Below are positions 26,001 through 64,000 of a stretch of 64,000 bases of DNA, piece after piece. The stretch is from IMG/VR virus record IMGVR_UViG_3300035695_000002, positions 56,725 to 120,724 of that record, one strand, 5' to 3'. The position numbers and the translations under genes are program-made. Below the pieces are notes generated by a model that worked only from the letters and a program-made list of their open reading frames with translations, did not search any database and was not told the DNA's origin. The stretch is from a virus. The first letter of the stretch is position 1. Each line of letters begins with the position of its first letter.

Positions 26001-26114
26001 AGAAGTATCAAATCCTTTATAAGGAAGATTTGGGAGATTTACGTCTGTAGGAGGAGAATATGTCTGAGAAGCATCTTGTAATGCTTGTTCATTCAATAAT
26101 GGTGTATCAGTCAT
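14022..26114 (-). CDS. Virion-packaged DNA-dependent RNA polymerase polyprotein (4030 aa), crAss/phi14:2 type
   Basis: RIPTQKQNSI...GSDFDIDKLF catalytic loop at about 16571-16595. Zincin-like YHEVFE at about 20515. Size and position fit the family. Confidence 0.88.
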   Translation of the reverse strand: MTDTPLLNEQALQDASQTYSPPTDVNLPNLPYKGFDTSLLPSEGGNPTPSALSALENKLFSISSGGDGKITGGSIPRSLKEVSSNRFDQYVPGDYNNEDAYALGQGWPSKMVNAVGKGLSLTGTTFLQSTAGTVIGLGKALTDGRAASFYDNEFNRALDEFNKNLENTLPNYYTDGEKNANWYSPKKLLTANFLWDGIIKNMGFAAGAYLSGGVYASGLKSLSALPGMAKLFSVGKAGETLAATEEALMAADKAAETYGKVESLSNKFLGTYNTLNKGQRVLVAGLATTGEAGFEAYYNLNDFRNTKIQEYKDSHDGWGPIGSDLDAINAASDGVGNSSFLLNTALLTATNYIQFPKILGSSDKAERSLIASTTTKEIGDITKDATGKFIKQEASTRTGRILSSINGIRPYTFSTSEGFEEGAQYAISQGTNDYYNKKYDNKSTDWLESLFQGAKQTIGTNEGMENVLIGGLSGALMLGRGKFQENRQIKANTADAIAKFNGYNLSDFTKATVDAVNRGTVLQEEREASLRRGDVLEAKDKEQDYIINYLSPRIKYGRFDLVQSDINEYKHLASTNEGFSQLQADGKVLQGDSRLAYLQRLSNLEEVAKHVKGLYESLQIRYGNLVKDGKPVYSPEVIDKMVYAASKVADYDKRIPQIANSLALKGVVTSDVINDVAKGRSEKYNEALSQIESFDINDDEKEELVRDLDDISELALRRQSFLKDYNDIKKTPESYKDVQIPTATPGVEPEKILVKTKDGEEEVIVGEEYFLGKTVEYDKSGKEVYRFPRITILGENEDGTIKVSDGKGNVKNVSKAVLEDYKLGKVSDTVNNKKAKFYMDNINSIFEFNFGKGKKQKGRLEYSSKDKTLNFVYKDAKGRIKSIEVTGDQFVPKKGYSLPMISKVGELSPAQQKSLDEFSTEQDNRITEKRTGRLKILTELFDEVSKRHEKTKELISEKQAQLENITKDLSALQDKIKDSQFTKKNRFKASSRRALEAAMKLSRLQDQIKEEISALEAERDETELNSAYIADLAQNIDELPTNTKDFLEELKEQRNNLESLILETGKEINTLSKLVDGVKGALDSAVAYLRDIISDFKTLYPKAPLAIGQEWVDFLKSNPNFLKKNPDYKDMLSKVEELVSQVEDLDITPNERTLNELVTELKGLQTKLSDAEKELKAKDLILAKFQEVADKFIRQKEEEEKIKNSKKLQKEILGSADPGVQTVNSESSYEPKPKKTDVAVVTSTKPAGSSTLPHHIRSNKFGANLDSFPNRQKIKGVLLTSKNEEELGLKGLTNFLKGDSDADASKIIALVMVENGVPVGEDGKKLEFPSFDNIIVQVMPDPKLEWSKEFGGGTMFRKDTTPEQIEYYKMRYAEWVKNALEKPSLNEHPVSASFGIPEYVTNLDEKGNNKRDYTAKTSVEEAGLIKSSDLSEKPVIFIPTTDTTVEKGSVSFTSPLGRPFLNLPNGYVKLDNRKLTKNEVNTIYEAIHQLAIDIFNNQDAQSEQSKRLMNWLKSIIYWGSPKNAAGFNSVWFSTINGEFSLSISGKDKTYPFTPSSIEGSKEEIISLLEGMYNNINSGLTDKPELWNTPYEEITSISREGVIEAKSWPNYQTYLLSKEGRKSSELPLSTNMKPVGEGAVNRHGIYFTLTDSADNYENAPKKAVVAPSAKKEVSQKGYILDGKTVNTYTSPEGKNINFKATSEGKITILTGGDVEEIRKSLTEKYDKDVAKASIEGKIKQAIAPQITEEKAPKKSIFNKSTETPSPERKPAIITTSPIEEKMEWSIDDLDGEEVALRVKLEEPLKYFEPENWEEMQKWLKANFPNLPVYRVKNVIQATNGQQAWGMLKNGAIYISKDAELGTIYHEVFEAVWKMFSDPQEQANVIKEFKDREGSFVDRPTGKTVNYSEATDFQIKEQLAEEFRDYVLNKKSPPKAKNTHFIIKLFRDLVDFIKSFFTGNTAVSNTDKLFDKIGRGYYKQFIPHEQQLSFAKEGFIDVEQAYTDNFSEFRIKNIPADKVNDIMQHMTYLTLTDLIKDNKSLFSIPDIHKKELYDRLKTRFTKIAEQSGEWDELVKKHQEYLKTYSIEFDENDDLVLKDEDASKKGDYQEATKIDVFKKANSAVKLLLSTIPIVDSKNHLVRSSIGGVRLLPSSQVFMAIMNNVHTSRSIDEMMDRIKEMSEDDNNYKTLYNRLTKNTSDLSEISEVHDGQLLAAFWRTFKKQSPDVKNVYIFDNGDVEVGDSNLSSAARQVSADYGNSIIKTVKSKNPYFEYSNKEKAYIGKPSGVKSVSLSTDQNRINFLKSLGIEFKTSELSKLSADKKQSFIEAVAGIKKSIQEAEKIATVSRKVLNIKGRLMQLSLIRASIDNPEFDSTFFNVKGERTQTFIGTNPTSDLFDVLSQINNKNELVNTPYEYLLTDSFAQGSVILDKIFNPVTGNRIKGGEQLMHPGYADGTVNTSNGKKKQSAKLTYKERLVQEINLNSKGYYYNLVPGDASMEWMTYMGNHISSDSLLSGMSKVHDIFKGYFLSELELSREDRPVAKKRDSEDLRFLKSILGEELQKSILKEKLSTEEVYAKYQSQINKAVDAFIKQETVNLRELLSKYDIIKKDSEGIKVQNLSFSDGEVITEPVLNRQLSAITINYIVNNIEFHKLLYSDPYQYSDELKRIKNALSPRQAIINNSPNFNKALNKIWNKGYDKGDVGYTDMTRDYFRTVTSEDVVSTSDLKDYGNFEETDGGGIISHKAYRWFRIKAGEWNDDEEKQYRYDIAYEKDIKGIDLSKEERTLLDGINPEVKSAYTPIKPIVFGNKLNGKPYNDVVLDKFALYPLSFRIVHSLNPESNAIKHYNKMQKENIDYTVFASGRKVGSEGLNPIYNEDGTFNESPYEALVNVSHGIISIQSEVPSKDEPLVTRGSQITKLVTMDYMEAGVPVDFSKGANFTQRLNEWNKLSETQKLAKSELYKEIKNNQHLLEAIIDNGYNSLLTKMGIEQTKDGDFIIKDFDKVSDTLRDEVLKREVNDNIVDAFEGFKNGDVVLEATPAYQQIRNILYSIADRNVISPKISGGQKVQIPSTLLESVKAKKEKGAYTSDFLRFYKDEDGKRTCEIMVGRWFNSPLSDSELLNYLNKTKEGQSLLSGVAYRIPTQKQNSIDSFVIKQFLPKEFGDSVVIPSELVRKVGSDFDIDKLFIYFKNTYTSLKGNIKQIPFYGYGEAAKAKLGELYDQGEFLKKEDRNRVNNWIKTRALDERQDVVNKLATAIFGQGAFDQEVIDDFLEANSDENLKERIVNQIYKKSLENEYIQSLQNLISHPDNFENLVKPNSADQLKALAKDITKKLGFAEFTYDDPKNMLNRHFMSRLRQAFVSGKYAIGIAAVNQTNHSLNQRQPIYIDQERWGLVSEEDKFWLSGGTFKKEDVAIKFKNYNKIDVNDKSVPTLSMIKNAKGENISDIIGQFIDGYVDISKGPWIMELGASPNVASTWLFLVKLGVPIKDVAYFMNQPIIRDYLDSIENAGYVWLFIEDFVEDIKDSPKYKVAPSEFNKIKEIPSNLGETVGKEKLSPQEKAQQQFILNEFLKYAKMANHQFLVTQGANWDTANFNDPYLVFKKNEQFKKAQSTIISSVNDLVKGSFIGKLSEKIYDVRDAFSTILTSDKPNVREVIEDVLRPYVDMNDRDFVKLAQKAVNDLFDWAVQNDRKLNNQIQKILLSDDNTAKEVSDFVTKVRKDENHPLYNNQIVKLVTPHFSEKNEGVNNLKIKNKDNKVYDQNQMIYAFSELRQYLKVQDSPLYGSLVRLAVLQSGLSNSPISFTSLLPYEDFKNIYNKTLSILEEYPNLADFKVLDVFQRNNWNNDDLVPQRKAKWKQNKNGEWKYNNNMKFIGYKRVSAAIAKKEIPQLVKINTKSREAENDVIVYTWETGTKAEKDKLKKQGDYSYIKRGLFKKVKQYGTPYTIDFSIGDTLISDYVYKAINAWGDSHSSDGVYFSANEFYNVAKPSIIDNGFIKVEKEASDESILSYFESPTKEVVEDEDDSNSNLPNCS

Positions 26115-28663
26115 TAAAAAGGTTTTTTGGAAGCAAGTTTAACTTGTTTTAAATCATTCTCTGTAGAAGGAGTTTCATTCAATAGTTCATATATTGCACT
26201 GTCATTAAGTCCTATTAGGGCATCATATAGTGCTTTTTCACTTATCATCTTTGAAGGATAGGATATATTTTCATGCCATACTTTCTGTGTAGGATCAAAT
26301 ATACTAAGTTTAATTTGATATAAATCTCCAGCAGGTTGTATGATGTTGGCTTTTACGCCATAAGTTCCTACATTAGGAAAATCTACACTTGATAGAAAAC
26401 TGTTATTGTGAGTTGATTCTCCAGGTGATAGAGCTGTACTATATCCTCCCATCTTTCTTATTTGCTCTTGATAAGGTCTAATAGCTTGTACTCTAGGATC
26501 AGCTTCAAATCTTTGACCAAACATTGATAGTTTGTGTTCTGGAGTGATAAGAGCTTTAGTTACCAAATCTTTATCCCCCACCTTTCCACTAGCTGTTAAT
26601 TCATACATTGCTGGTTGAAATTCACTACCTTCTACAACATTCAATCTGTATTGTGTGTTAGGAGAAGAGGATAATTTTCTAGCAACATCAACATCAAAAT
26701 CAGGAGATCCTGGAAGTTTACCATTTGTCTTTTCTGCTAAATTAGCCAATCCTGCAAGATTACCCCCCATTGATCTAATTTGAGCTTCGTTCTCTGTAGG
26801 AACTGTATATTCCATCCCTTGAGGAGATGTTATTCTATTCTTTAATTCTTCTTGAGAGAGGTCATTTATTTTTCCTATCATCTCTCTATTTGGATTATTT
26901 ACTATTTGATTATAATGTTGAACATTATTTAATAATATTTTATTAGCTTCATTTAAAGGTTTTTTACTAGCTTGTACTTCTAATAAATGATATTCTTTAG
27001 GGGAAAGTTCTTGTTTAGCTTTGTTAAAATCAAAAGCTACTCCTCCAGTATTTAAAGAAGATATATATTTAGACAAATTATTATTATAATTAACAAAATC
27101 TTTAGGAGAATAAATATACTGATTCACACCATCATTATACTGTATATCTGGAGCATTCTTAGGAATAAGTTTATTAATATATTCTGAAGGATCTCCTATT
27201 CCTAAAGCCTTTCCTGCTTCTTTTTGAGTACTTATTAACATGGCTTTATTAGCCTCTGTTATTCTTCTAAGAGGTTCTGTGGAAGCTAAATGATAAGCTA
27301 CTTCACTTTCCACACCATTAGGACTTCTAGTCCAAGCTTCTCTTTGCTGATTAAGCCATTCTTCATTTTTACCCTTTTTACCAAGGAAACCATTATCTAA
27401 GGAAGATAAGGAATTTGCATATTCCTGTGTTTTATCTACTACAGAAGCTATATTTACTTTTGGAAGATTTTCCTGATTTGAAGGTTGAGGAAGCCCTCCA
27501 TATCCACTATCTAATTTTAGTTTAGATGCTTGAATATCTACTTCTCTCTTTCTTAATTCATATGTTTTTTGAAATTTATCCCAGTCTCTTGCTTGTTCTT
27601 CTCTCCATTGTTGAGCTTTAGCAAAAGGATTGGTTTCATATGTATTAGAGGTTTCTGTGTAAGAGAAGGCTTTTGAGAAGTTATTAAGGAAATTGCTTGT
27701 ATGTAATTGAGCTTTAACACCTTCTATATTTCCATGAGCTAAAGCATCGTCCATTTGCTTCTGTTCTCCTGATATACCTCCTAATACTTTCTCCAAAGAA
27801 GCAATCTGTTCATCCAGCTTGCTCTTTTGTAACACAGAAGTTGTGGAGCTTTTAGCATTCTCCAGTATTCTCTTTTGTTCATTATAGAAATCCACCTTTG
27901 TTCTATAGGAAGATTTGAGATTTTGAGAGAATTGTTCTGGTGAAACATTAGAATAAGTATATCTACCATCTATCTCCATTTGCTTAAAATCAGCAGGGGA
28001 AAGGGTAGCCATTAGAGCTTGTTGTATTTTCCCTGGATCTATACCAGCTAGTTTCTTCCTTACAATAGCATCAGCTATTACAAGATTCCCTTTAGAGTCT
28101 AATGTGAAAGCGTCATCTGTAATAGATTCATCCTTTGTAAGAGCTTTAATGGTATCTAAAGCATTTTTTTTATAATTGGTATATGGGTTATATCCCCCAG
28201 AGAAGCCCGATTTTATATCCTTGTTATTAAGCCAATTTGAGGCTTGAGTTTGAAAATCCCATTCATTAGAAGGAGAAGACTTCCCTTCCTTTTTAGCAGA
28301 TTCCATGTCTGCTAACCCTTTCCTATACTTCATTGTAGAGGCTACAGCATTCTGTATATTAGGATCTTTAACTATTTGCTTAGTCATTCCTCCTACAGAA
28401 TTTACTAATTGAAAATTAGAGAAATCTCCAGCAGCCACCTTTTTAAGATTGCTTCCTAGCTCATTTAACCTAGATTGAAGATATTGTTTATCCACATCCC
28501 TCACTACATCCAATCCAGCAATATCGTCAACTTGGGATTGGATTTTCTGTACACCCTCATTGTATTGTTGCTGCTTGTACATACCCACCTCCTTCATTGC
28601 ATTTACAGGCAATTGAGCTACATAAGGAGTATATGGTAATAATTGATCGGTGAACGAAGCCAT
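26114..28663 (-). CDS. Virion cargo protein (849 aa)
   Basis: Helical protein between the Gly-rich cargo gene and the RNAP, as in crAss-like synteny. Confidence 0.65.
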   Translation of the reverse strand: MASFTDQLLPYTPYVAQLPVNAMKEVGMYKQQQYNEGVQKIQSQVDDIAGLDVVRDVDKQYLQSRLNELGSNLKKVAAGDFSNFQLVNSVGGMTKQIVKDPNIQNAVASTMKYRKGLADMESAKKEGKSSPSNEWDFQTQASNWLNNKDIKSGFSGGYNPYTNYKKNALDTIKALTKDESITDDAFTLDSKGNLVIADAIVRKKLAGIDPGKIQQALMATLSPADFKQMEIDGRYTYSNVSPEQFSQNLKSSYRTKVDFYNEQKRILENAKSSTTSVLQKSKLDEQIASLEKVLGGISGEQKQMDDALAHGNIEGVKAQLHTSNFLNNFSKAFSYTETSNTYETNPFAKAQQWREEQARDWDKFQKTYELRKREVDIQASKLKLDSGYGGLPQPSNQENLPKVNIASVVDKTQEYANSLSSLDNGFLGKKGKNEEWLNQQREAWTRSPNGVESEVAYHLASTEPLRRITEANKAMLISTQKEAGKALGIGDPSEYINKLIPKNAPDIQYNDGVNQYIYSPKDFVNYNNNLSKYISSLNTGGVAFDFNKAKQELSPKEYHLLEVQASKKPLNEANKILLNNVQHYNQIVNNPNREMIGKINDLSQEELKNRITSPQGMEYTVPTENEAQIRSMGGNLAGLANLAEKTNGKLPGSPDFDVDVARKLSSSPNTQYRLNVVEGSEFQPAMYELTASGKVGDKDLVTKALITPEHKLSMFGQRFEADPRVQAIRPYQEQIRKMGGYSTALSPGESTHNNSFLSSVDFPNVGTYGVKANIIQPAGDLYQIKLSIFDPTQKVWHENISYPSKMISEKALYDALIGLNDSAIYELLNETPSTENDLKQVKLASKKPF

Positions 28664-28668
28664 GAGTG

Positions 28669-28700
28669 CAAATTTAACTTAAGAAATTATTATATCCAAA
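28669..28700 (-). promoter_or_regulatory. Bacteroidota-type promoter, probably giving a leaderless mRNA
   Basis: TTTG-N20-TAAATTTG, then CACTC and the ATG at 28663. Confidence 0.7.
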
Positions 28701-50406: not shown

Positions 50407-50481
50407 TAGCGTTGTCTTGGATTCGAACCAAGGATTTCAAGCTTATGAGGCTTGCGAGATAGTCCACTTCTCTAACCCGCT
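50407..50481 (-). tRNA. tRNA-Met (CAT), isolated
   Basis: AGCGGGTTAGAGAAGTGG...CAAGC-CTCATAA-GCTTG...GGTTCGAATCC cloverleaf. Confidence 0.85.
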
Positions 50482-54551: not shown

Positions 54552-57155
54552 TTACTTCTTAGGTTTCTTGGAAGCTGCTTGTTTTTTAGCTTTTAAGTTT
54601 AATTTCGCTATTGTTAAGTCATTTTCCATCTTCTTAGTCTCTACACCAAGCTTCTTCTCCTCTAAGGCTTTCTGGTCAGCAGCCTGTTTATTCTTGGAAG
54701 CCATATCAGAAAGCTTTAAATTATAGTCTTTTAAAGCACTTTCTTGGTCATGTATAAGTCTGGAAGCTTCTAAAACATCAGGAATATTATTTTGGTTCAA
54801 GTCTTCAGACTCTACCTTTCCAAACCCTGTAGCTTGAATAATAGCAATTTTCTCTTTAGACTCTCTATCCAGTTGTTTTTGATAGTCATCATGAGCAACT
54901 TGCTTATCATGTTGCTCTGCTGCCTGTTGTAATTGAGCTTGAGAAATACCAGCTTGTTGCTCAATTTCCTGTTGTTTCTGTTGTAATTGTTGATTTTGGA
55001 ATTCTTCTTGTCTTTCTTTAAGAACCTTGAAAGATTTTTGCATCTGTCTAATACTGTCTGTAGAATACAATTCTACAATATCGTATAAAGAAGCCCCATT
55101 CTGCATAGCAGGTTGAGCCAACATTCTGATTTCTTTAAATAACTCTCTGTCTTCAGCTCTGTTAGTAGGGAACACTTTTAAGTCCCTAAGTTTCAAATCT
55201 GTACCATTTACCTGTACAAAGGCAGATTCTCCTTTATTGGTAATATAGGACAATGTAGATTGTGGTTTCTGAGACTCCACATACAGGGAAGCGTCCATTA
55301 TGGCCTGATATACTTGTCTTATTACATACTCATGGGCTACAAATACAGGCTCTGTTTGAGAATAAGACTGTGTGATGGCAGCATTAGTGCCTGTAGCAGA
55401 TTCTGAAGCTGATACTGTACCAAGTCTTTGTTTAGACATACCTATGAGTTCCCAACACTCGTTCTTCATTTGTACAGCTAAATTGTATCTAGCTTGTATT
55501 TCATTAGTTCTTGTTAGATCTATATTTCCAGCTACAGATTGATTGGTGACAGGACCTTTGGTATTTTCTGGACTATCGTCATCAAACATTATACCTCTAC
55601 GTCTAGCCTCTAATTCCCACATATCAATATCATCTTGAGCATCTCCATCCTTCACCCTAGGAACTCTTCTTAAACTAACCCTGGCTACATTACCAATTTC
55701 CTTCTTTAAAAGCTCAAACATCTGATTCATACAGACGTTATATATTACTTGGAAAGGTTTCATCATATCCACTAAGGACTTAGCCTCAGTATTCTTCACC
55801 TCATAGTTTATCCCTATAATAGGACAATAATCTAAGAGTTTGTAAGGCTTAATATGATAGATGTCTGGACCAATTTTAACACCTTGATACCATTGATTCA
55901 CCCATCCCCATTCTAGTGATATTTGTGTGGGAATTGTCTTGTTTTTATAGTTTTCGTCTACGAGAATAGATTGTTCGTTCCCTAATTCATCCTCATATAT
56001 AACCTTTCCTATCTTTCTTTTACTAATCCAATAAGCCCTAACTACTACATATTTATATCCGAATGAAGAAACATTAGATGTAAGTCCTAGGAAATCCTTT
56101 AAACTATCATTATTTTCCTTCATATCACTTTCTATCATCATTCTTTCTTCAAGAATAAGAGGATCAAAAGTGTCATATTTTATGGAATCTATACCTGGAG
56201 CCACACTAGAATTACCCAAATTAGACTCTCTTACATTAATAAGACCATAATCTTGAAGAGAAGATCTAAGGTGATCTATTTCATCTTTGGTAATATCTGG
56301 GAAGGTTTCTATGATTTCAGAGATTTCCATTACATGAACACCTCCAGCAGCATAAGCTCCTCTTGCTCTACCACTAGGATCTGATGTATATTTCCTATCA
56401 GGAGTGGAAAGAAACCATGTATTCTTGGGATTGAACACTTCTATATTAAACCCTGTTTTTGAGTTATCCTCATATATATGGAAATATTCCCTAGCAGAAA
56501 TACACATATCCCTATATCCATCTTCACTTAATTCCTTTATATTGAAGTCTGCTTTAGAACATGTTAATATATGATTTCCCCACTTTTCAGCAGTGGAGGT
56601 GTAACTGTCTAGTTCATCTTTTACATCATCTAAGGTCATTTGTTGAAGTTGATCATCATCAACTTCCTGTCCTTCCATAGCCAGTTTTTCTTCTATTCTT
56701 TGTTTGGCTTGTGCCACCACAAATTGCTGCAATATCTGGGTTTTAAACTCTAATTCTTCAGCTTTACTATCATCATCGAAAGCTTTTACTTTATATCCAT
56801 CTGGTCTTTTAGAGAGTTCTCCAACTAGTTCATTAATAGGAGTAGTGAGAATGGAATAGTGTTTTACGTAAGCAGGGAGGTCTAAATCTCTAGTAAGAGT
56901 TTCTGTGAAACTGCTCACTTCTGGAGTTTCATAGAAATCCTCATGTCTAAGTATACCTTTTACTAAATCGTAGTTTTTAACAAAGGTGTCCCTGTTTTTC
57001 TTATATTCTACATATGCCTTATTAGCAAAGTAGTCCATAGTGTTCTTTATCCAACTATCGTCCTTCTTCTCCTCTTCAGTTTTAAACTGATCAGGGAAGA
57101 TGTTCAGATAGGCATATCTGATTGTAGCATCCTTTGTATATCTAATAATCGCCAT
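54552..57155 (-). CDS. Portal protein (867 aa)
   Basis: Follows TerL; SLVDMMKPFQVIYN and IGMSKQRLG motifs; Gln-rich coiled-coil C terminus. Confidence 0.85.
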   Translation of the reverse strand: MAIIRYTKDATIRYAYLNIFPDQFKTEEEKKDDSWIKNTMDYFANKAYVEYKKNRDTFVKNYDLVKGILRHEDFYETPEVSSFTETLTRDLDLPAYVKHYSILTTPINELVGELSKRPDGYKVKAFDDDSKAEELEFKTQILQQFVVAQAKQRIEEKLAMEGQEVDDDQLQQMTLDDVKDELDSYTSTAEKWGNHILTCSKADFNIKELSEDGYRDMCISAREYFHIYEDNSKTGFNIEVFNPKNTWFLSTPDRKYTSDPSGRARGAYAAGGVHVMEISEIIETFPDITKDEIDHLRSSLQDYGLINVRESNLGNSSVAPGIDSIKYDTFDPLILEERMMIESDMKENNDSLKDFLGLTSNVSSFGYKYVVVRAYWISKRKIGKVIYEDELGNEQSILVDENYKNKTIPTQISLEWGWVNQWYQGVKIGPDIYHIKPYKLLDYCPIIGINYEVKNTEAKSLVDMMKPFQVIYNVCMNQMFELLKKEIGNVARVSLRRVPRVKDGDAQDDIDMWELEARRRGIMFDDDSPENTKGPVTNQSVAGNIDLTRTNEIQARYNLAVQMKNECWELIGMSKQRLGTVSASESATGTNAAITQSYSQTEPVFVAHEYVIRQVYQAIMDASLYVESQKPQSTLSYITNKGESAFVQVNGTDLKLRDLKVFPTNRAEDRELFKEIRMLAQPAMQNGASLYDIVELYSTDSIRQMQKSFKVLKERQEEFQNQQLQQKQQEIEQQAGISQAQLQQAAEQHDKQVAHDDYQKQLDRESKEKIAIIQATGFGKVESEDLNQNNIPDVLEASRLIHDQESALKDYNLKLSDMASKNKQAADQKALEEKKLGVETKKMENDLTIAKLNLKAKKQAASKKPKK

Positions 57156-60791: not shown

Positions 60792-61143
60792 GTAGGATGG
60801 AGATTTGTAACACAACATCCTTATCAAAATCTAGGAGAAATTGAGGATTCACCTTTATCTTTCCACTTTCCTTTACAAGGATGTTCACCTTCTTAAGCTT
60901 AGAAATGATGTTATTAATTGTAGGGGAAGATGACTTATAGAGGGAACAAAACTCTTCTCTATTGGTAGAATATGATATATTCCCTTTAATAGCTGTAAAG
61001 GCTATTAATTGTATCTCCCTTTCTGTCAATTTTGTATTACTAATAGCCGACAATAAACTGTAATATCTCTGGGCTATTGATAAACTATCCTTCTCTGAAA
61101 GCTTAATTTTCTGTAAAAGTGTTTTTCTATCCTTGGTTTCCAT
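60784..61143 (-). CDS. Winged-helix-like DNA-binding protein (probable start METKDRK)
   Basis: LTEREIQL...SSPTINNIISKLKKVNILVK...KVNP. Confidence 0.6.
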   Translation of the reverse strand: METKDRKTLLQKIKLSEKDSLSIAQRYYSLLSAISNTKLTEREIQLIAFTAIKGNISYSTNREEFCSLYKSSSPTINNIISKLKKVNILVKESGKIKVNPQFLLDFDKDVVLQISILHG

Positions 61144-61157
61144 ACGTAATTCTAATA

Positions 61158-61188
61158 CAAATGTAGGAGGAATTATTCTAACTAACAA
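61158..61188 (-). promoter_or_regulatory. Bacteroidota-type promoter for the packaging/head operon
   Basis: TTG-N20-TACATTTG upstream of the ATG at 61143. Confidence 0.65.
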
Positions 61189-61227
61189 GAATAATTATAA
61201 ATAAATGCCATATTATGTCAAGAATTC

Positions 61228-61332
61228 CTATTTGAATAACTCAGCTATTGTATTTATTACCACTGCTGCTATAAGGAATACTATCCTATACATGACCAAT
61301 CCTATCATTATTACTATAATTGCTCCTACCAT
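61228..61332 (-). CDS. 34-aa hydrophobic membrane peptide missed by the ORF track
   Basis: MVGAIIVIMIGLVMYRIVFLIAAVVINTIAELFK*, directly downstream of tRNA-Cys. Confidence 0.5.
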   Translation of the reverse strand: MVGAIIVIMIGLVMYRIVFLIAAVVINTIAELFK

Positions 61333-61347
61333 ATTGTTTAAATTTAG

Positions 61348-61418
61348 AATCAGGAGTGAGGTTCGAACTCACGTAATAGGTTTTGCAGACCTATGTTTAA
61401 CCACTCAACCATCCTGAT
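61348..61418 (-). tRNA. tRNA-Cys (GCA)
   Basis: Anticodon arm TAGGT-CTGCAAA-ACCTA; T-loop TTCGAAC. Confidence 0.9.
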
Positions 61419-61579
61419 ATTGCTTATCTGGAATTTCAAAGCCCTATATATTCCCAAGACCCTGCCACCCATCCCCAAAGTTACTGCCTTTTATGGGAGG
61501 ATTGCAAATAACATTCTAAGTTATTTTCTAACTATTTGATAATGAGGAGGAATAATTTCAAGTGAACACTTGACAAAAG

Positions 61580-61651
61580 TGCAGTAAGTGAGACTTGAAC
61601 TCACAGCCCTTGGTTTGGAAGACCAATGCTCTACCTTGGAGCTATTACTGC
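61580..61651 (-). tRNA. tRNA-Gly (TCC)
   Basis: TTGGT-CTTCCAA-ACCAA. Confidence 0.9.
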
Positions 61652-61656
61652 ATATG

Positions 61657-61727
61657 TACCCAATGATGGAATCAAACCACCGCTACATGGATGTAAACCA
61701 AGTGCGCTATCATTACGCCAATTGGGC
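61657..61727 (-). tRNA. tRNA-Val (TAC)
   Basis: CTTGG-TTTACAT-CCATG. Confidence 0.85.
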
Positions 61728-61731
61728 ATTG

Positions 61732-61804
61732 TGGAACCATCTAGTAACGATCTAGAATTTCTCCCTCTTCAGGGGAGCACATATACCATATATGTTATAG
61801 TTCC
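61732..61804 (-). tRNA. tRNA-Phe (GAA), atypical T-loop
   Basis: CTCCC-CTGAAGA-GGGAG; T-loop ATCGTTA. Confidence 0.85.
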
Positions 61805-61863
61805 TGATATGGAGCCAAGGGGCAGTGCTCCCACTGTAAGTTCCCTTTCAACTTGGCATTTAG

Positions 61864-61934
61864 ATGCGAAGAGGGGAGTCGAACCCCTACGGTGAGGATA
61901 TGAGCCTCATGATCTACCATTAATCTACCTCGCA
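61864..61934 (-). tRNA. tRNA-Met (CAT), initiator-like
   Basis: TGCGAGG acceptor stem; TGAGG-CTCATAT-CCTCA. Confidence 0.85.
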
Positions 61935-61940
61935 ATATTG

Positions 61941-62013
61941 TTGTGATATTAGGAATCGAACCTAAAACCTCCACCTTATCAGAGTGTTGCGCTGCCAGTT
62001 GCGCCATATCACA
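61941..62013 (-). tRNA. tRNA-Ile (GAT)
   Basis: CACT-CTGATAA-GGTG. Confidence 0.9.
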
Positions 62014-62018
62014 ATAAG

Positions 62019-62089
62019 TTCTGCCACAGGGAATCGAACCCTGGTCTGAAAGTTAAAAGCTTCCAGCTCTACCATTGAGCTATGACAGA
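62019..62089 (-). tRNA. tRNA-Lys (TTT)
   Basis: GGAAG-CTTTTAA-CTTTC. Confidence 0.9.
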
Positions 62090-62166
62090 ATAAATCTTGT
62101 CATAGTCTTTCTTATCTGTTTCCATAATATTTTAACTGAGTGACATCAATGTCCTTCAGTTGATAG

Positions 62167-62238
62167 TTGACCCTAGCAGTACCGATCTGCTGACCATCTC
62201 ATTATGAGTGAGGTGCTCCACCATTGAGCTAAGGGTCG
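62167..62238 (-). tRNA. tRNA with CAT anticodon, probably Ile2 (lysidine, reads ATA); Met not excluded
   Basis: GACCCTTAGCTCAATGG...CTCA-CTCATAA-TGAG resembles bacterial Ile2; T-loop ATCGGTA. Confidence 0.75.
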
Positions 62239-62241
62239 ATG

Positions 62242-62313
62242 TAGTCCTACTGAGATTCGAACTCAGACCAAAAGATTAGAAGTCTCTTATTCTTCCAATT
62301 AAACTATAGAACC
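62242..62313 (-). tRNA. tRNA-Arg (TCT)
   Basis: AGAGA-CTTCTAA-TCTTT. Confidence 0.9.
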
Positions 62314-62350
62314 TTGTTCTACAGTTGTCTCCTTATGTTTACTTTCATAG

Positions 62351-62424
62351 ATCCCTAGGTCAGAGTTGAACTGACAGCCTCCAGTTTACAAAACTATTGC
62401 TCCACCAATTGAGCTACGTAGGGA
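62351..62424 (-). tRNA. tRNA-Thr (TGT)
   Basis: TAGT-TTTGTAA-ACTG; irregular acceptor stem. Confidence 0.85.
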
Positions 62425-62430
62425 ATATTG

Positions 62431-62499
62431 CACGCCCCCATAGAATCGAACTATGTCCTACGGTTTTGGAGACCGTCTGGCTACCTTAGCCTGAAGCAT
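62431..62499 (-). tRNA. tRNA-Trp (CCA)
   Basis: ACGGT-CTCCAAA-ACCGT. Confidence 0.85.
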
Positions 62500-62506
62500 G
62501 TGTATG

Positions 62507-62577
62507 AGGGAAGTGATAGAATCGAACTACCATATAGTGATTAACAGTCACTTGTTCTGCCATTGAACTAACAACCC
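62507..62577 (-). tRNA. tRNA-Asn (GTT)
   Basis: AGTGA-CTGTTAA-TCACT. Confidence 0.9.
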
Positions 62578-62583
62578 TTTAAG

Positions 62584-62656
62584 CAGTCTTGAAGGGATTT
62601 GAACCCTCTCCGTACCCATAGACAGTGGGACATCTTAACCATTTGACCTCAAGACT
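62584..62656 (-). tRNA. tRNA-Asp (GTC)
   Basis: CCCA-CTGTCTA-TGGG. Confidence 0.88.
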
Positions 62657-62659
62657 ATG

Positions 62660-62733
62660 TGGAAAGGTTGGGGCTTCGAACCCCAGACTCCTGAATGCAA
62701 ATCAGGTGTGATAGCCAGCTTCACCAAACCCCC
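62660..62733 (-). tRNA. tRNA-Ala (TGC)
   Basis: CCTGA-TTTGCAT-TCAGG. Confidence 0.88.
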
Positions 62734-62735
62734 AT

Positions 62736-62767
62736 AAAACAAAAAAGACTCCTTTTTGGGGAGCCTT
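62736..62767 (-). terminator. Attenuator-type intrinsic terminator directly upstream of tRNA block B
   Basis: AAGGCTCC-CCAAAAA-GGAGTCTT-TTTTGTTTT, ending 2-3 nt before tRNA-Ala. Confidence 0.85.
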
Positions 62768-62790
62768 ATTAACCTATTAGGTTATATCTT

Positions 62791-62877
62791 TTATTGGCTC
62801 CAACAATACACTCCCACCTTACCACAATCTCTTGTCGCAAACATGGTGAATATAATATTAAACCAATTCCTTTTCAT
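62791..62877 (-). CDS. Leader peptide B (28 aa, MKRNWFNIIFTMFATRDCGKVGVYCWSQ)
   Basis: Translated by hand. Codons match the 14 downstream tRNAs. The 3' end carries GGAGCC, complementary to the terminator 5' arm GGCTCC. Confidence 0.85.
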   Translation of the reverse strand: MKRNWFNIIFTMFATRDCGKVGVYCWSQ

Positions 62878-62898
62878 ATTATTCTATTTAAACTTCTG

Positions 62899-62971
62899 TA
62901 CTCCCAAGGGGCTATGATCCCCTGTTTTAACATTGAAAGTGTTATGTCCTAGCCAATTAGACGATGGGAGC
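62899..62971 (-). tRNA. tRNA-Glu (TTC), atypical T-loop
   Basis: TAACA-CTTTCAA-TGTTA; T-loop ATCATAG. Confidence 0.85.
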
Positions 62972-63019
62972 ATATTGCTCCTCACTCTCTATTTCACTAT
63001 TTTGGACTATGTCTTTCAT
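62957..63019 (-). CDS. Leader peptide E (20 aa, MKDIVQNSEIESEEQYAPIV), reading into tRNA-Glu
   Basis: Translated by hand. Four Glu codons in a six-codon stretch; the stop codon lies inside the tRNA-Glu D arm. Confidence 0.65.
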   Translation of the reverse strand: MKDIVQNSEIESEEQYAPIV

Positions 63020-63026
63020 GGGAATA

Positions 63027-63058
63027 CAAACCTAGTAAATAAAATACATAATTCCTAA
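63027..63058 (-). promoter_or_regulatory. Internal Bacteroidota-type promoter for leader E, tRNA-Glu and leader B
   Basis: TAGGTTTG (-7 element) 7 nt upstream of the ATG at 63019; TTAG at the -33 spacing. Confidence 0.6.
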
Positions 63059-63079
63059 TATTTATCAAGTTATTTTTAG

Positions 63080-63160
63080 TTGTATAGGCAGGAATCGAAC
63101 CTACATAGCCTAAGCGGTGGTTTTACAGACCCTTGATTTAGCCAATTTACCATCTATACA
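63080..63160 (-). tRNA. tRNA-Tyr (GTA)
   Basis: GGT-CTGTAAA-ACC; long variable arm. Confidence 0.88.
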
Positions 63161-63166
63161 ATATAG

Positions 63167-63251
63167 AAGAGAGTAGGAGATTTGAACTTCTGGAGCTGTT
63201 ACACCCTTTTGTTTAGCAAACAAACACAATAAGCCACTCTGTCAACTCTCT
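63167..63251 (-). tRNA. tRNA-Ser (GCT)
   Basis: TTTGT-TTGCTAA-ACAAA; long variable arm. Confidence 0.88.
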
Positions 63252-63255
63252 GTAG

Positions 63256-63342
63256 AAGAGGGTGTGGGATTCAAACCCACGGAACTTTTACATCCTCTGG
63301 TTTTCAAGACCAGTGCAATAAATCAGACTCTACCAACCCTCT
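63256..63342 (-). tRNA. tRNA-Ser (TGA)
   Basis: CTGGT-CTTGAAA-ACCAG; long variable arm. Confidence 0.9.
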
Positions 63343-63347
63343 TTATG

Positions 63348-63435
63348 TATCCCTAGAAGGCATCGAACCTTCACACTACTATTATTTCGCTTTAGATTTT
63401 AAGTCTAACGTGTCTGCCAATTTCACCATAGGGAC
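63348..63435 (-). tRNA. tRNA-Leu (TAA)
   Basis: TTAGA-CTTAAAA-TCTAA; long variable arm. Confidence 0.9.
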
Positions 63436-63438
63436 ATG

Positions 63439-63513
63439 TACTTCAGGTGGAATTCGAATCCACAAGCCCCTGATTCTAAATCAGAGAGGTTTACCATTTT
63501 CCTTCACTGAAGC
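63439..63513 (-). tRNA. tRNA-Leu (TAG), short variable loop
   Basis: TCTGA-TTTAGAA-TCAGG. Confidence 0.85.
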
Positions 63514-63519
63514 ATATAG

Positions 63520-63591
63520 TCTTTTCTTAAGGATTTGAACCTTAATTGCAGAGTTCGTAGCCCTGAGTCCTTCCATTTAAACGAAGAAAAG
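63520..63591 (-). tRNA. tRNA-Arg (ACG)
   Basis: CAGGG-CTACGAA-CTCTG. Confidence 0.9.
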
Positions 63592-63596
63592 AAATA

Positions 63597-63667
63597 GGTG
63601 TCTGATGGGAATTGACCCCACACATCTTTGATTCACAGTCAAAGGCTCTACATTAAGCTACAGACAC
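63597..63667 (-). tRNA. tRNA-His (GTG)
   Basis: TTTGA-CTGTGAA-TCAAA; C73 discriminator. Confidence 0.88.
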
Positions 63668-63669
63668 AG

Positions 63670-63741
63670 TTTTAATATTGGGATTCGAACCCAAACTACC
63701 AGATTCAAAATCCGAGGTGCTAACCGTTACACCATATTAAA
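63670..63741 (-). tRNA. tRNA-Gln (TTG)
   Basis: TCGGA-TTTTGAA-TCTGG. Confidence 0.9.
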
Positions 63742-63743
63742 AG

Positions 63744-63819
63744 TCTAGATGGCAGGATTTGAACCTGCGTAATCCTGCTTCCAAGGCAGGCTAGATAAAC
63801 CTAACTCCTATACATCTAG
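63744..63819 (-). tRNA. tRNA-Pro (TGG)
   Basis: CCTGC-CTTGGAA-GCAGG. Confidence 0.9.
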
Positions 63820-63852
63820 AAAATAAAAAACCCCTCTTTTTGGGAGGGGTCT
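63820..63852 (-). terminator. Attenuator-type intrinsic terminator directly upstream of tRNA block A
   Basis: GACCCCTC-CCAAAAA-GAGGGGTT-TTTTATTTT, abutting tRNA-Pro. Confidence 0.88.
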
Positions 63853-63875
63853 ATGCTTTAAAAAGTTGTTCTGAA

Positions 63876-63962
63876 TCAACTATAATCAAACACAAATATC
63901 CCCTCACCTCCTAGATAACTAGGGAGCGAATGCTGTTGTGAAGGGCGTAAGTATTGTTTCAT
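63876..63962 (-). CDS. Leader peptide A (28 aa, MKQYLRPSQQHSLPSYLGGEGIFVFDYS)
   Basis: Translated by hand. Codons 3-17 match the nine downstream tRNAs. Contains GAGGGG, complementary to the terminator arm CCCCTC. Confidence 0.85.
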   Translation of the reverse strand: MKQYLRPSQQHSLPSYLGGEGIFVFDYS

Positions 63963-63967
63963 AAAGG

Positions 63968-63999
63968 CAAATATATGTAAAAGGATTGACATTTCCAAA
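63968..63999 (-). promoter_or_regulatory. Bacteroidota-type promoter of the tRNA array (leaderless transcript predicted)
   Basis: TTTG-N20-TATATTTG, then CCTTT and the ATG of leader A. Confidence 0.8.
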
Positions 64000-64000
64000 T

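Follow-up and report, generated by a model that had tools for sequence, protein, structure and literature searches.

A short glutamate-rich reading frame enters a phage tRNA-Glu gene and might gate its folding through the ribosome

We analysed a stretch of viral DNA of 64,000 nucleotides (nt), positions 56,725 to 120,724 of the IMG/VR record IMGVR_UViG_3300035695_000002, which is called the window throughout. Within it, a gene for a transfer RNA (tRNA), tRNA-Glu(UUC), is entered by a micro open reading frame (micro-ORF) of 20 codons, whose stop codon TAA (62957-62959) is at the same time nt 13-15 of the tRNA (Table 1). Four of the 20 codons encode glutamate, compared with 6.3% in the long ORFs of the phage, and three of these four are GAG, which accounts for only 27% of the Glu codons in those long ORFs. 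We refer to this arrangement, together with its promoter-like sequence, as the Glu unit. An earlier sequence-only reading of this DNA had proposed a Glu-rich frame overlapping tRNA nt 1-15, a promoter-like sequence ahead of it, a hairpin GGAGCA-ATA-TGCTCC that involves the 5' acceptor strand of the tRNA, and the absence of a terminator, and our analysis bears out each of these. The hairpin, in which the leader pairs with tRNA nt -1 to +5, is part of the minimum-energy fold, and it is wider than 6 base pairs (bp) because AGA in the leader adds pairs with UCU at nt 11-13. It is followed by CAUCGUCUAAUU and not by a U tract. No terminator-like site was found between the micro-ORF and tRNA-Glu (62972-63060), the only minus-strand sites of this kind in 61000-64000 being 63852-63828 and 62767-62745; an intrinsic terminator at the Glu unit was accordingly dropped from consideration.

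Table 1. Coordinates in the window of the Glu unit, the related Lys unit and the two leader frames of the tRNA array
Feature	Position	Strand	Remarks
tRNA-Glu(UUC)	62899-62971	-	Rfam tRNA RF00005, 53.9 bits (gathering score 29); ARAGORN Glu(ttc) at 62898-62971
Micro-ORF MKDIVQNSEIESEEQYAPIV, 20 codons	62957-63019	-	starts 7 nt after TAGGTTTG; stop in the tRNA-Glu D-loop
Glu-codon block GAA(9) ATA GAG(11) AGT GAG(13) GAG(14)	62978-62995	-	GAA 62993-62995, GAG 62987-62989, GAG 62981-62983, GAG 62978-62980; from the sequence and its relatives
Anti-tRNA arm: AGA (62988-62990), then GGAGCA (62976-62981)	62976-62990	-	pairing test across relatives, and folds
tRNA-side partner: U(-1) with G1-C5 (62967-62972), U11-C12-U13 (62959-62961)	62959-62972	-	folds and pairing test
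-7 box TAGGTTTG (consensus TAnnTTTG)	63027-63034	-	box in 9/9 relatives
-33-like element TTAG	63055-63058	-	20 nt upstream of the -7 box; TTTG in 3/9 relatives
Micro-ORF METDKKDYDKIYSVIAQW into tRNA-Lys(UUU) (62019-62089)	62069-62125	-	stop in the D-loop; from a survey of all fetched loci
Leader B ORF	62791-62877	-	downstream of tRNA-Glu on the same strand; terminator 62745-62767
Leader A ORF	63876-63962	-	5 nt after TATATTTG; terminator 63828-63852, ahead of tRNA-Pro

The comparison was made on nine distinct sequences, namely the window, the viral contigs L002, L003 and L084, and the metagenome contigs L203, L206, L214, L219 and L220. A route through the terminase kept 80 loci from 456 relatives, only two of which hold the tRNA array. 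Two scans, one of viral and one of metagenome contigs, were keyed only on the anticodon arm of tRNA-Glu; they gave one additional viral contig and 23 metagenome loci, 10 of which carry the Glu unit. Looser patterns, used in three scans of viral contigs, gave matches that were mostly due to chance: at least 117 stretches in the first (two relevant, both already known), at least 118 in the second, and 34 stretches plus three known loci in the third, where four of the 37 were tRNA-Glu. Contigs from four DNA runs contributed variants only, among them one with a synonymous GAC-to-GAT change together with a change in the loop, and one resembling L206 with a net deletion of 3 nt.

In all nine distinct sequences having this type of tRNA-Glu, the Glu unit lies between tRNA-Tyr and tRNA-Glu and has the same composition: TT(T/A)G-N20-TAnnTTTG, a gap of 4 or 7 nt, an ATG, an open frame, a hairpin onto the start of the tRNA and a stop codon in the tRNA D-loop. 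The sequence-only reading had staked its proposal on the conservation of ORF and hairpin, and both are found throughout. The tRNA gene does not encode CCA, and its T-loop is non-canonical (AUCAUAG instead of the usual UUCGAAU type; AGCAUUA in L003, canonical in L084). By itself, it folds into a cloverleaf of -21.1 kcal/mol, which RNAalifold recovers from the nine sequences with compensatory changes at 10 of 22 pairs, and these changes indicate that tRNA-Glu is a living gene.

The reading frame is maintained in a way that its mere presence would not suggest. Fifteen ORFs of at least 20 amino acids (aa) overlap 62700-63200, so that a lone ORF of 20 codons is unremarkable. Across the nine sequences, however, there are always three to five Glu codons, of which those in the motif GAG-NNN-GA(G/A)-GA(G/A), reading E-x-E-E, are common to all. 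Between the ATG and the Glu block lie 24, 27, 33 or 36 nt, each of these lengths being divisible by three, and 11, 12, 14 or 15 codons precede the last Glu pair. Frame 0 of the stretch between the ATG and the Glu block is free of stop codons in every sequence, whereas the other two frames contain 0-3 stops; shuffling gives a stop-free frame 0 with a probability of 0.23-0.50 per sequence. For the five most diverged lineages (L002, L214, L084, L219 and L003), and with 1/3 each for the frame, the combined chance is about 1e-5 if the lineages were independent, which they are not fully, and the three in-frame length changes alone set a floor of about 0.04 on the chance estimate. Judged by this comparison, it is the conservation rather than the presence of an ORF that exceeds chance.

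What is conserved does not look like a peptide. One could suppose that the product is a small acidic peptide with an independent role and that the frame overlaps the tRNA only through gene packing; the protein-level conservation of the M-K start and of E-x-E-E would fit this. However, a 1-nt deletion in the hairpin loop of L003 and L219 changes the frame past the Glu pair, so that the C-terminal third of the product is read in a different frame there and its residues are evidently unimportant. Residues 3-8 are not conserved either, and the predicted products of 19-25 aa have no shared core besides the Glu codons. A functional peptide is thus hardly credible, and the idea was dropped on account of the C-terminal frame in L003 and L219. 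Sequence comparison suggests instead that the act of reading and the Glu codons are maintained, and not the peptide.

The position of the start codon is also suggestive. The -33-like and -7 elements are 20 nt apart in the alignment of all nine sequences, and the ATG follows TAnnTTTG by 4 nt in five relatives and by 7 nt in four. According to PMC7366714 and PMC9723704, TAnnTTTG is the -7 element of Bacteroidota sigma-A promoters, accompanied by TTTG at about -33, and the latter source places it at -12 to -5 in Flavobacterium psychrophilum; TAGGTTTG fits this element. With TAnnTTTG at -12 to -5, the predicted +1 coincides with the first base of the ATG where the gap is 4 nt (five relatives) and precedes the ATG by 3 nt in the window group (~63022). 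From this box-to-ATG spacing, the micro-ORF message is predicted to be leaderless or nearly so. The composite promoter motif occurs six times on the coding strand compared with 0.96 +/- 0.88 times in shuffled sequences. The end of one copy (within 28664-28700, minus strand) and the ATG of the 849-aa gene that follows it (26114-28663) are 5 nt apart, so that at least one ordinary protein gene of the phage is predicted to be nearly leaderless as well, and another copy stands 5 nt ahead of leader A. Between the -33 and -7 elements, L003, L084, L214, L219 and L220 carry an inverted repeat GGAAnn...nnTTCC, which is weak in the window (63035-63054, minus strand); it might serve as an operator or mark where the transcript of the upstream block ends.

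The leader and the tRNA compete for the same strand. The sequence-only reading had called for folding the precursor with and without its 5' segment, and the outcome agrees with its expectation: the tRNA alone forms the cloverleaf, and when the leader is present the acceptor 5' strand is taken by the leader. In partition-function folds of all nine sequences, 5.4-7.0 of the 7 nt of the acceptor 5' strand are paired with the leader and 0.0-0.07 of 7 with the 3' strand. In the window, the 141-nt precursor folds at -52.2 kcal/mol (z-score -6.83; equalled by none of 200 shuffles) with nearly the entire leader paired to the 5' half of the tRNA, and the leader adds -18.1 kcal/mol to tRNA-Glu, whereas its gain with any of the remaining 21 tRNAs in the array is -0.4 to -8.9 kcal/mol. 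When only the leader of the window is shuffled, the z-score is -7.3, and none of 300 shuffles reaches the real energy. Across relatives, the specified leader-tRNA helix, tested at 10 pairs, is paired in 88.9% of the cells compared with 36-55% when the partner is slid. In L002, GGAGCA/TGCTCC has become GGAACA/TGTTCC, and the 3' strand of the tRNA is altered to match. Two more elaborate ideas about the leader were dropped. One held that it is maintained as an inverted copy of the tRNA 5' half, but outside the window group and L002 the long complementarity is not strong; the other assigned the anticodon loop as partner to the ATG-AAA start, which does pair with it in the fold of the window but not in that of L002.

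A sibling of the Glu unit was found at tRNA-Lys(UUU). The sequence-only reading had assigned Glu a separate unit; Glu is not alone in this, as Lys has one, too. The micro-ORF METDKKDYDKIYSVIAQW runs into tRNA-Lys, and its arm GACUAUGACA pairs with tRNA-Lys nt 3-10, within 10-12 bp of complementarity to the start of that tRNA. The Lys codons AAG-AAA lie directly upstream of the arm and outside it. This unit is conserved in L002, L206, L219 and L222 besides the window, and in the first 36 nt of the ORF in these five relatives all six variable columns are third codon positions, five of the changes being synonymous and one replacing Asp by Glu. The Lys hairpin is paired in 98.3% of the cells and has two compensatory pairs, a score reached by 14 of 500 shuffles: in L002, GAC has changed to GAG together with tRNA G4 to C4, and in L219, TAT to TAC together with tRNA A7 to G7. 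Unlike the Glu unit, the Lys unit separates the cognate codons from the pairing arm, and on these alignments it bears a clear coding signature. In all fetched loci, 17 ORFs enter a tRNA with at least three cognate codons among the last eight upstream codons, and these are 11 Glu and six Lys units, all belonging to the lineages described here.

The ORF itself might nevertheless be incidental. The conserved element would then be a 5' leader hairpin serving the order or stability of processing, or an eroded relic of a partial tRNA duplication in inverted orientation. This would explain why the leader of the window resembles the reverse complement of the tRNA 5' half and why a GGAGC/GCUCC hairpin is present in other lineages with different upstream sequence, and ORFs that enter tRNAs are frequent by chance. 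It would not explain why every change in the ATG-to-Glu-block length is a multiple of three, why frame 0 remains free of stops in all nine sequences while the other frames acquire them, why the ATG sits at the predicted transcript start, or why 6/6 substitutions in the Lys unit fall on third codon positions. Moreover, the frame is conserved and the long complementarity is not. We therefore consider an incidental ORF improbable.

A simple model of the ribosome footprint was used to locate the codons at which a waiting ribosome could affect the fold. A mask covering -12 to +15 nt from the first P-site base was set at each codon in turn. As long as no ribosome is placed, the seven acceptor pairs have a mean probability of 0.00-0.01 in all nine sequences. 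In the window, this value rises to 0.14 with GAA(9) in the A site, to 0.97 with AUA(10), GAG(11) or AGU(12), and is 0.82 with GAG(13). Among the nine, the probability is 0.33-0.97 (0.62-0.97 in eight of them) when the A site holds the first Glu codon of the block or the codon that follows. The window of release spans 3-4 codons around the first two Glu codons of E-x-E-E in seven sequences and opens earlier in L220 and L219. In the Lys units, placing Lys codon 5 or 6 in the A site raises the acceptor-stem probability from 0.00-0.25 to 0.96-0.99 in 5/5. Crude as it is, the model places the points at which a waiting ribosome would release the tRNA on cognate codons.

The same model bears on the opposite polarity, in which efficient translation would melt the hairpin and a stalled ribosome would block processing, so that the output of tRNA-Glu would follow translation capacity in a feed-forward manner. 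A stall at the last Glu codon or later does cover the 5' end of the tRNA, and a ribosome waiting 5-6 nt upstream may get in the way of RNase P (ribonuclease P). On the other hand, termination in the D-loop would free both arms together, and the hairpin with its 3-nt loop is the nearest and most stable partner. In Glu and Lys units alike, release of the tRNA is tied to stalls on cognate codons, which a feed-forward design would not need. We regard this polarity as decidedly improbable.

Among more distant lineages, a Lys unit and a Glu unit of differing sequence occur together in L209; in its Glu leader, the 8-nt stretch GACGAACC exactly complements tRNA nt 5-12, and its Lys leader brings no gain in energy (z-score +1.16). 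In L299, which is the same as L363 at the Glu unit, MKNKIEDEELCS... begins 2 nt past tRNA-Ile. In L291 and L311, a GGAGC-UAU-GCUCC hairpin lies 17 nt past the stop codon of a gene for a protein of ~74 aa. Under footprint masking, L209, L291, L311 and L299 behave like the nine sequences. In the cultured Leptolyngbya phage Lbo-JY46 (L372, PP438436.1, 3520-4443), TTTG-N20-TAnnTTTG-N4-ATG starts an annotated gene for a homing endonuclease of 275 aa, whose stop codon lies inside an unannotated tRNA-Glu(UUC) (Rfam, 37.6 bits). By its position, the endonuclease appears to occupy the place of the micro-ORF.

These lineages lend some weight to a further alternative, namely translation-coupled unfolding without any sensing of an amino acid. 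Passing ribosomes would open the hairpin or time the release, and the Glu codons would be a by-product, as an arm directed against CUCC and UCU reads GAG in one of its three frames. The conserved GAG codons do coincide with paired nucleotides, the peptide is otherwise unconstrained, an ordinary protein gene ends 17 nt ahead of the hairpin in L291 and L311, and a homing endonuclease gene replaces the micro-ORF in Lbo-JY46. Several features are difficult to reconcile with this explanation, however. The Lys codons AAG-AAA lie outside the arm and are kept with synonymous changes only; L219 retains Glu as GAA where the pairing is thereby weaker; most relatives have additional unpaired GAA codons upstream; and the codons of leaders A and B match the tRNAs of their own blocks. 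In the footprint model, a ribosome that simply passes through ends atop the tRNA, where the acceptor-stem probability is 0.00. Unfolding without sensing thus seems unlikely to us.

From the frame, the pairing, the conservation and the geometry observed in the sequences, we infer translation of the micro-ORF, stalling on its codons, dependence on RNase P and the direction of the response. On the basis of sequence and folding analysis, the mechanism proposed by the sequence-only reading has the best support of those considered, and we hold it moderately probable that the Glu unit is a folding switch on a phage tRNA precursor, which is sensed by the ribosome and releases tRNA-Glu on demand. A sigma-A-type promoter would start the transcript at the AUG or at most 3 nt from it, and the frame of 20 codons would be read leaderless or nearly so. 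The 3' part of the frame (AGAG-NNN-GAGGAGC) complements tRNA-Glu nt -1 to +5 and nt 11-13, and because this arm is transcribed before the 3' acceptor strand of the tRNA, the leader would capture the 5' acceptor strand by default. In this default state, there would be no cloverleaf and no substrate for RNase P. When Glu-tRNA-Glu is scarce, the ribosome would wait for the first or the second Glu of E-x-E-E to be decoded in its A site, its footprint lying over the arm but not over the tRNA, so that the cloverleaf could fold and RNase P could free the tRNA. When Glu-tRNA-Glu is plentiful, the ribosome would enter the tRNA, stop in the D-loop and depart, and the hairpin would re-form. The same device would act on tRNA-Lys, and the remaining array would be under two conventional attenuators consisting of leader peptide and terminator.

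A number of observations weigh against this switch. The energy models omit tertiary structure and modification of the tRNA, and the size of the footprint is assumed. From GAG(14) onward, the acceptor-stem probability is 0.00 because the footprint reaches the tRNA, and a stall on the last Glu codon would give no release; the proposal of the sequence-only reading that a ribosome stalled on Glu codons masks the arm and lets the cloverleaf fold is consequently upheld by the model for the first and second Glu codons of E-x-E-E and fails for the last. Among all fetched loci, 66 of 175 tRNAs with an upstream spacer of at least 40 nt are entered by an ORF starting with ATG. Residues 3-8 vary freely, and outside the Glu block the peptide takes non-synonymous substitutions. 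Because patterns of the Glu unit were used to fetch the sample, the Glu count among the 17 cognate-rich ORFs is not independent, and the Lys cases alone are free of selection. Covariation in the Glu hairpin is thin, with one pair changed on both sides, a score reached by 94 of 500 shuffles and most columns invariant; and as the three conserved GAG codons form part of the arm, constraint on coding and constraint on pairing are inseparable there. The z-scores of leader shuffling range from -7.3 to -1.2 among the relatives, and in five of the nine the real energy is reached by 8-44 of 300 shuffles; the core arm is general, unlike the long complementarity that joins leader and tRNA in the window. 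The in-frame ATG of L291 and L311, which falls inside the terminal stretch of a different protein gene, may be an incidental one. Leaderless messages are rare in Bacteroidota, amounting to 5.5% in F. psychrophilum according to PMC9723704, and 5' untranslated regions shorter than 10 nt make up about 3.7% in B. thetaiotaomicron according to PMC7366714. The sigma-A reading of the box is itself insecure, as the nearest cultured relative is recorded on a cyanobacterium.

Attenuation by leader peptides, as in trpL, hisL, pheL, leuL and thrL, relies on a short frame rich in cognate codons, where the position of a stalled ribosome chooses between pairing of segments 1:2 and 2:3. The Glu unit shares the short cognate-rich frame and, in silico, mutually exclusive pairings that are chosen by the position of the ribosome. 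It differs in that there is no intrinsic terminator, segment 2:3 being represented by the acceptor stem of the tRNA, and in that the frame enters the regulated RNA gene, so that the output would be folding and processing rather than read-through. The regulated product would be the sensed tRNA itself and not a gene for the biosynthesis or transport of an amino acid. In the translational attenuation of erm and cat genes, a drug-induced stall in the leader remodels a hairpin without any terminator and uncovers a ribosome-binding site. The Glu unit likewise would remodel a hairpin without a terminator, but the stall would presumably occur on hungry cognate codons and uncover the acceptor strand of a tRNA. 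The T-box riboswitch binds uncharged tRNA directly, without a ribosome, and controls genes for synthetases and amino-acid metabolism. Both systems would sense tRNA charging through an RNA leader in cis, the Glu unit by way of the ribosome. A T-box at the Glu unit was considered and rejected, as tRNA is the only Rfam family to reach the gathering threshold in the array, and no family matches the Glu spacer at E-values up to 1.

Two published systems come closer in single respects. A man-made, ligand-controlled RNase P riboswitch sequesters the single-stranded 5' leader of a tRNA precursor (PMC7897497). The step targeted is common to both, namely processing by RNase P through sequestering or exposing the region around the 5' leader; the Glu unit, however, is natural, is presumably controlled by the ribosome and sequesters the 5' strand of the acceptor stem. 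In mycobacteria, leaderless short ORFs with polycysteine tracts act as Cys-responsive attenuators at the head of polycistronic transcripts (bioRxiv 10.1101/834739). They have in common with the Glu unit a leaderless short ORF of cognate codons sensing the supply of one amino acid, but they regulate downstream protein genes, with neither overlap with a tRNA nor control of tRNA folding. A published leader ORF that controls or overlaps a tRNA gene was not found in the literature searched, which excluded subscription-only journals and supplementary files. On the evidence of the sequences, we take the Glu unit to follow the logic of ribosome-mediated attenuation, with an output for which there is no precedent in the literature searched.

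The reasons for which phages carry tRNA genes, and the control of these genes, have long been in question. Phage tRNAs have been linked to escape from defences that cleave tRNAs (eLife PMC10264068; Nature PMC11464382). The proposed switch may replace host tRNAs that are destroyed or outcompeted in infection, for example by anticodon nucleases that target tRNA-Lys and relatives. We would go further only tentatively, in a proposition that falls a little short of an even call: some phages might run their tRNA genes on demand, with each tRNA or block of tRNAs tied to a tiny frame written in its own codons, and the Glu and Lys frames, which enter the tRNA and let a starved ribosome unlock the precursor for RNase P, might represent a new class of cis-regulator, a ribosome-gated tRNA folding switch. 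If true, this would be the first natural tRNA gene regulated by the supply of its own aminoacyl-tRNA, the first natural case of a regulatory overlap between a reading frame and a tRNA gene, and the first natural case of attenuation logic with RNA folding and access of RNase P as the output instead of termination or initiation. It would also provide a compact part for demand-driven tRNA expression.

The window is the terminal part of a virus record of 120,724 bp with direct terminal repeats, and its long ORFs are all on the minus strand. The terminase, portal protein and major head protein encoded in it match PHROG families of the crAss type, and by these matches the source genome of 121 kb is a crAss-like phage. 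The closest cultured relative by terminase is Lbo-JY46 with 40% identity; the Cellulophaga phages phi17:2 and phi4:1 (33% terminase identity) and gut crAss-like phages are also among the nearest cultured ones. The tRNA array lies on the minus strand at the end of the genome. ARAGORN identified 22 tRNAs and missed two further Rfam tRNA matches below the gathering score, 62431-62499 (28.0 bits) and 63081-63159 (24.4 bits), both on the minus strand. Because relatives identify these as Trp(CCA) and Tyr(GTA), respectively, we count 24 tRNAs in the array.

Leaders A and B, each with its terminator, are conserved among relatives, and from the relatives and from reading the sequence, a segment at the end of each ORF is complementary to the 5' arm of its own terminator. 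They look like classical attenuators of leader peptide and terminator ahead of tRNA blocks. In L214, where block A is headed by a relocated tRNA-Ala, leader A has an Ala codon. From the codons, the array appears to be gated throughout by codon-matched leader frames, with the Glu and Lys units sitting within it.

Some minor observations concern the same region. Two contig joints, both from one DNA run, omit 62878-63025 and 62878-63051, so that the promoter region adjoins the ATG of leader B. With 80% likeness and sides of 27-33 nt, these joints hint only weakly at relatives that have no Glu unit and in which the same promoter drives leader B directly. The spacer between tRNA-Gly and tRNA-Cys (61419-61578, minus strand) contains a promoter-like motif (61476-61508), then, after 3 nt, an ATG and a conserved G-rich stretch GGGGATGGGTGGCAGGG; the frame from this ATG enters tRNA-Cys with no Cys codons at all and would be a leader of a different kind. 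Outside the array, an isolated Rfam tRNA match of 43.8 bits (50408-50480, minus strand), which has no ARAGORN call, is located amid structural genes. Finally, ORFs of the HNH or homing endonuclease type with CxxCH motifs are situated between tRNA genes of L002, L219 and L222, and their places of insertion differ among relatives.

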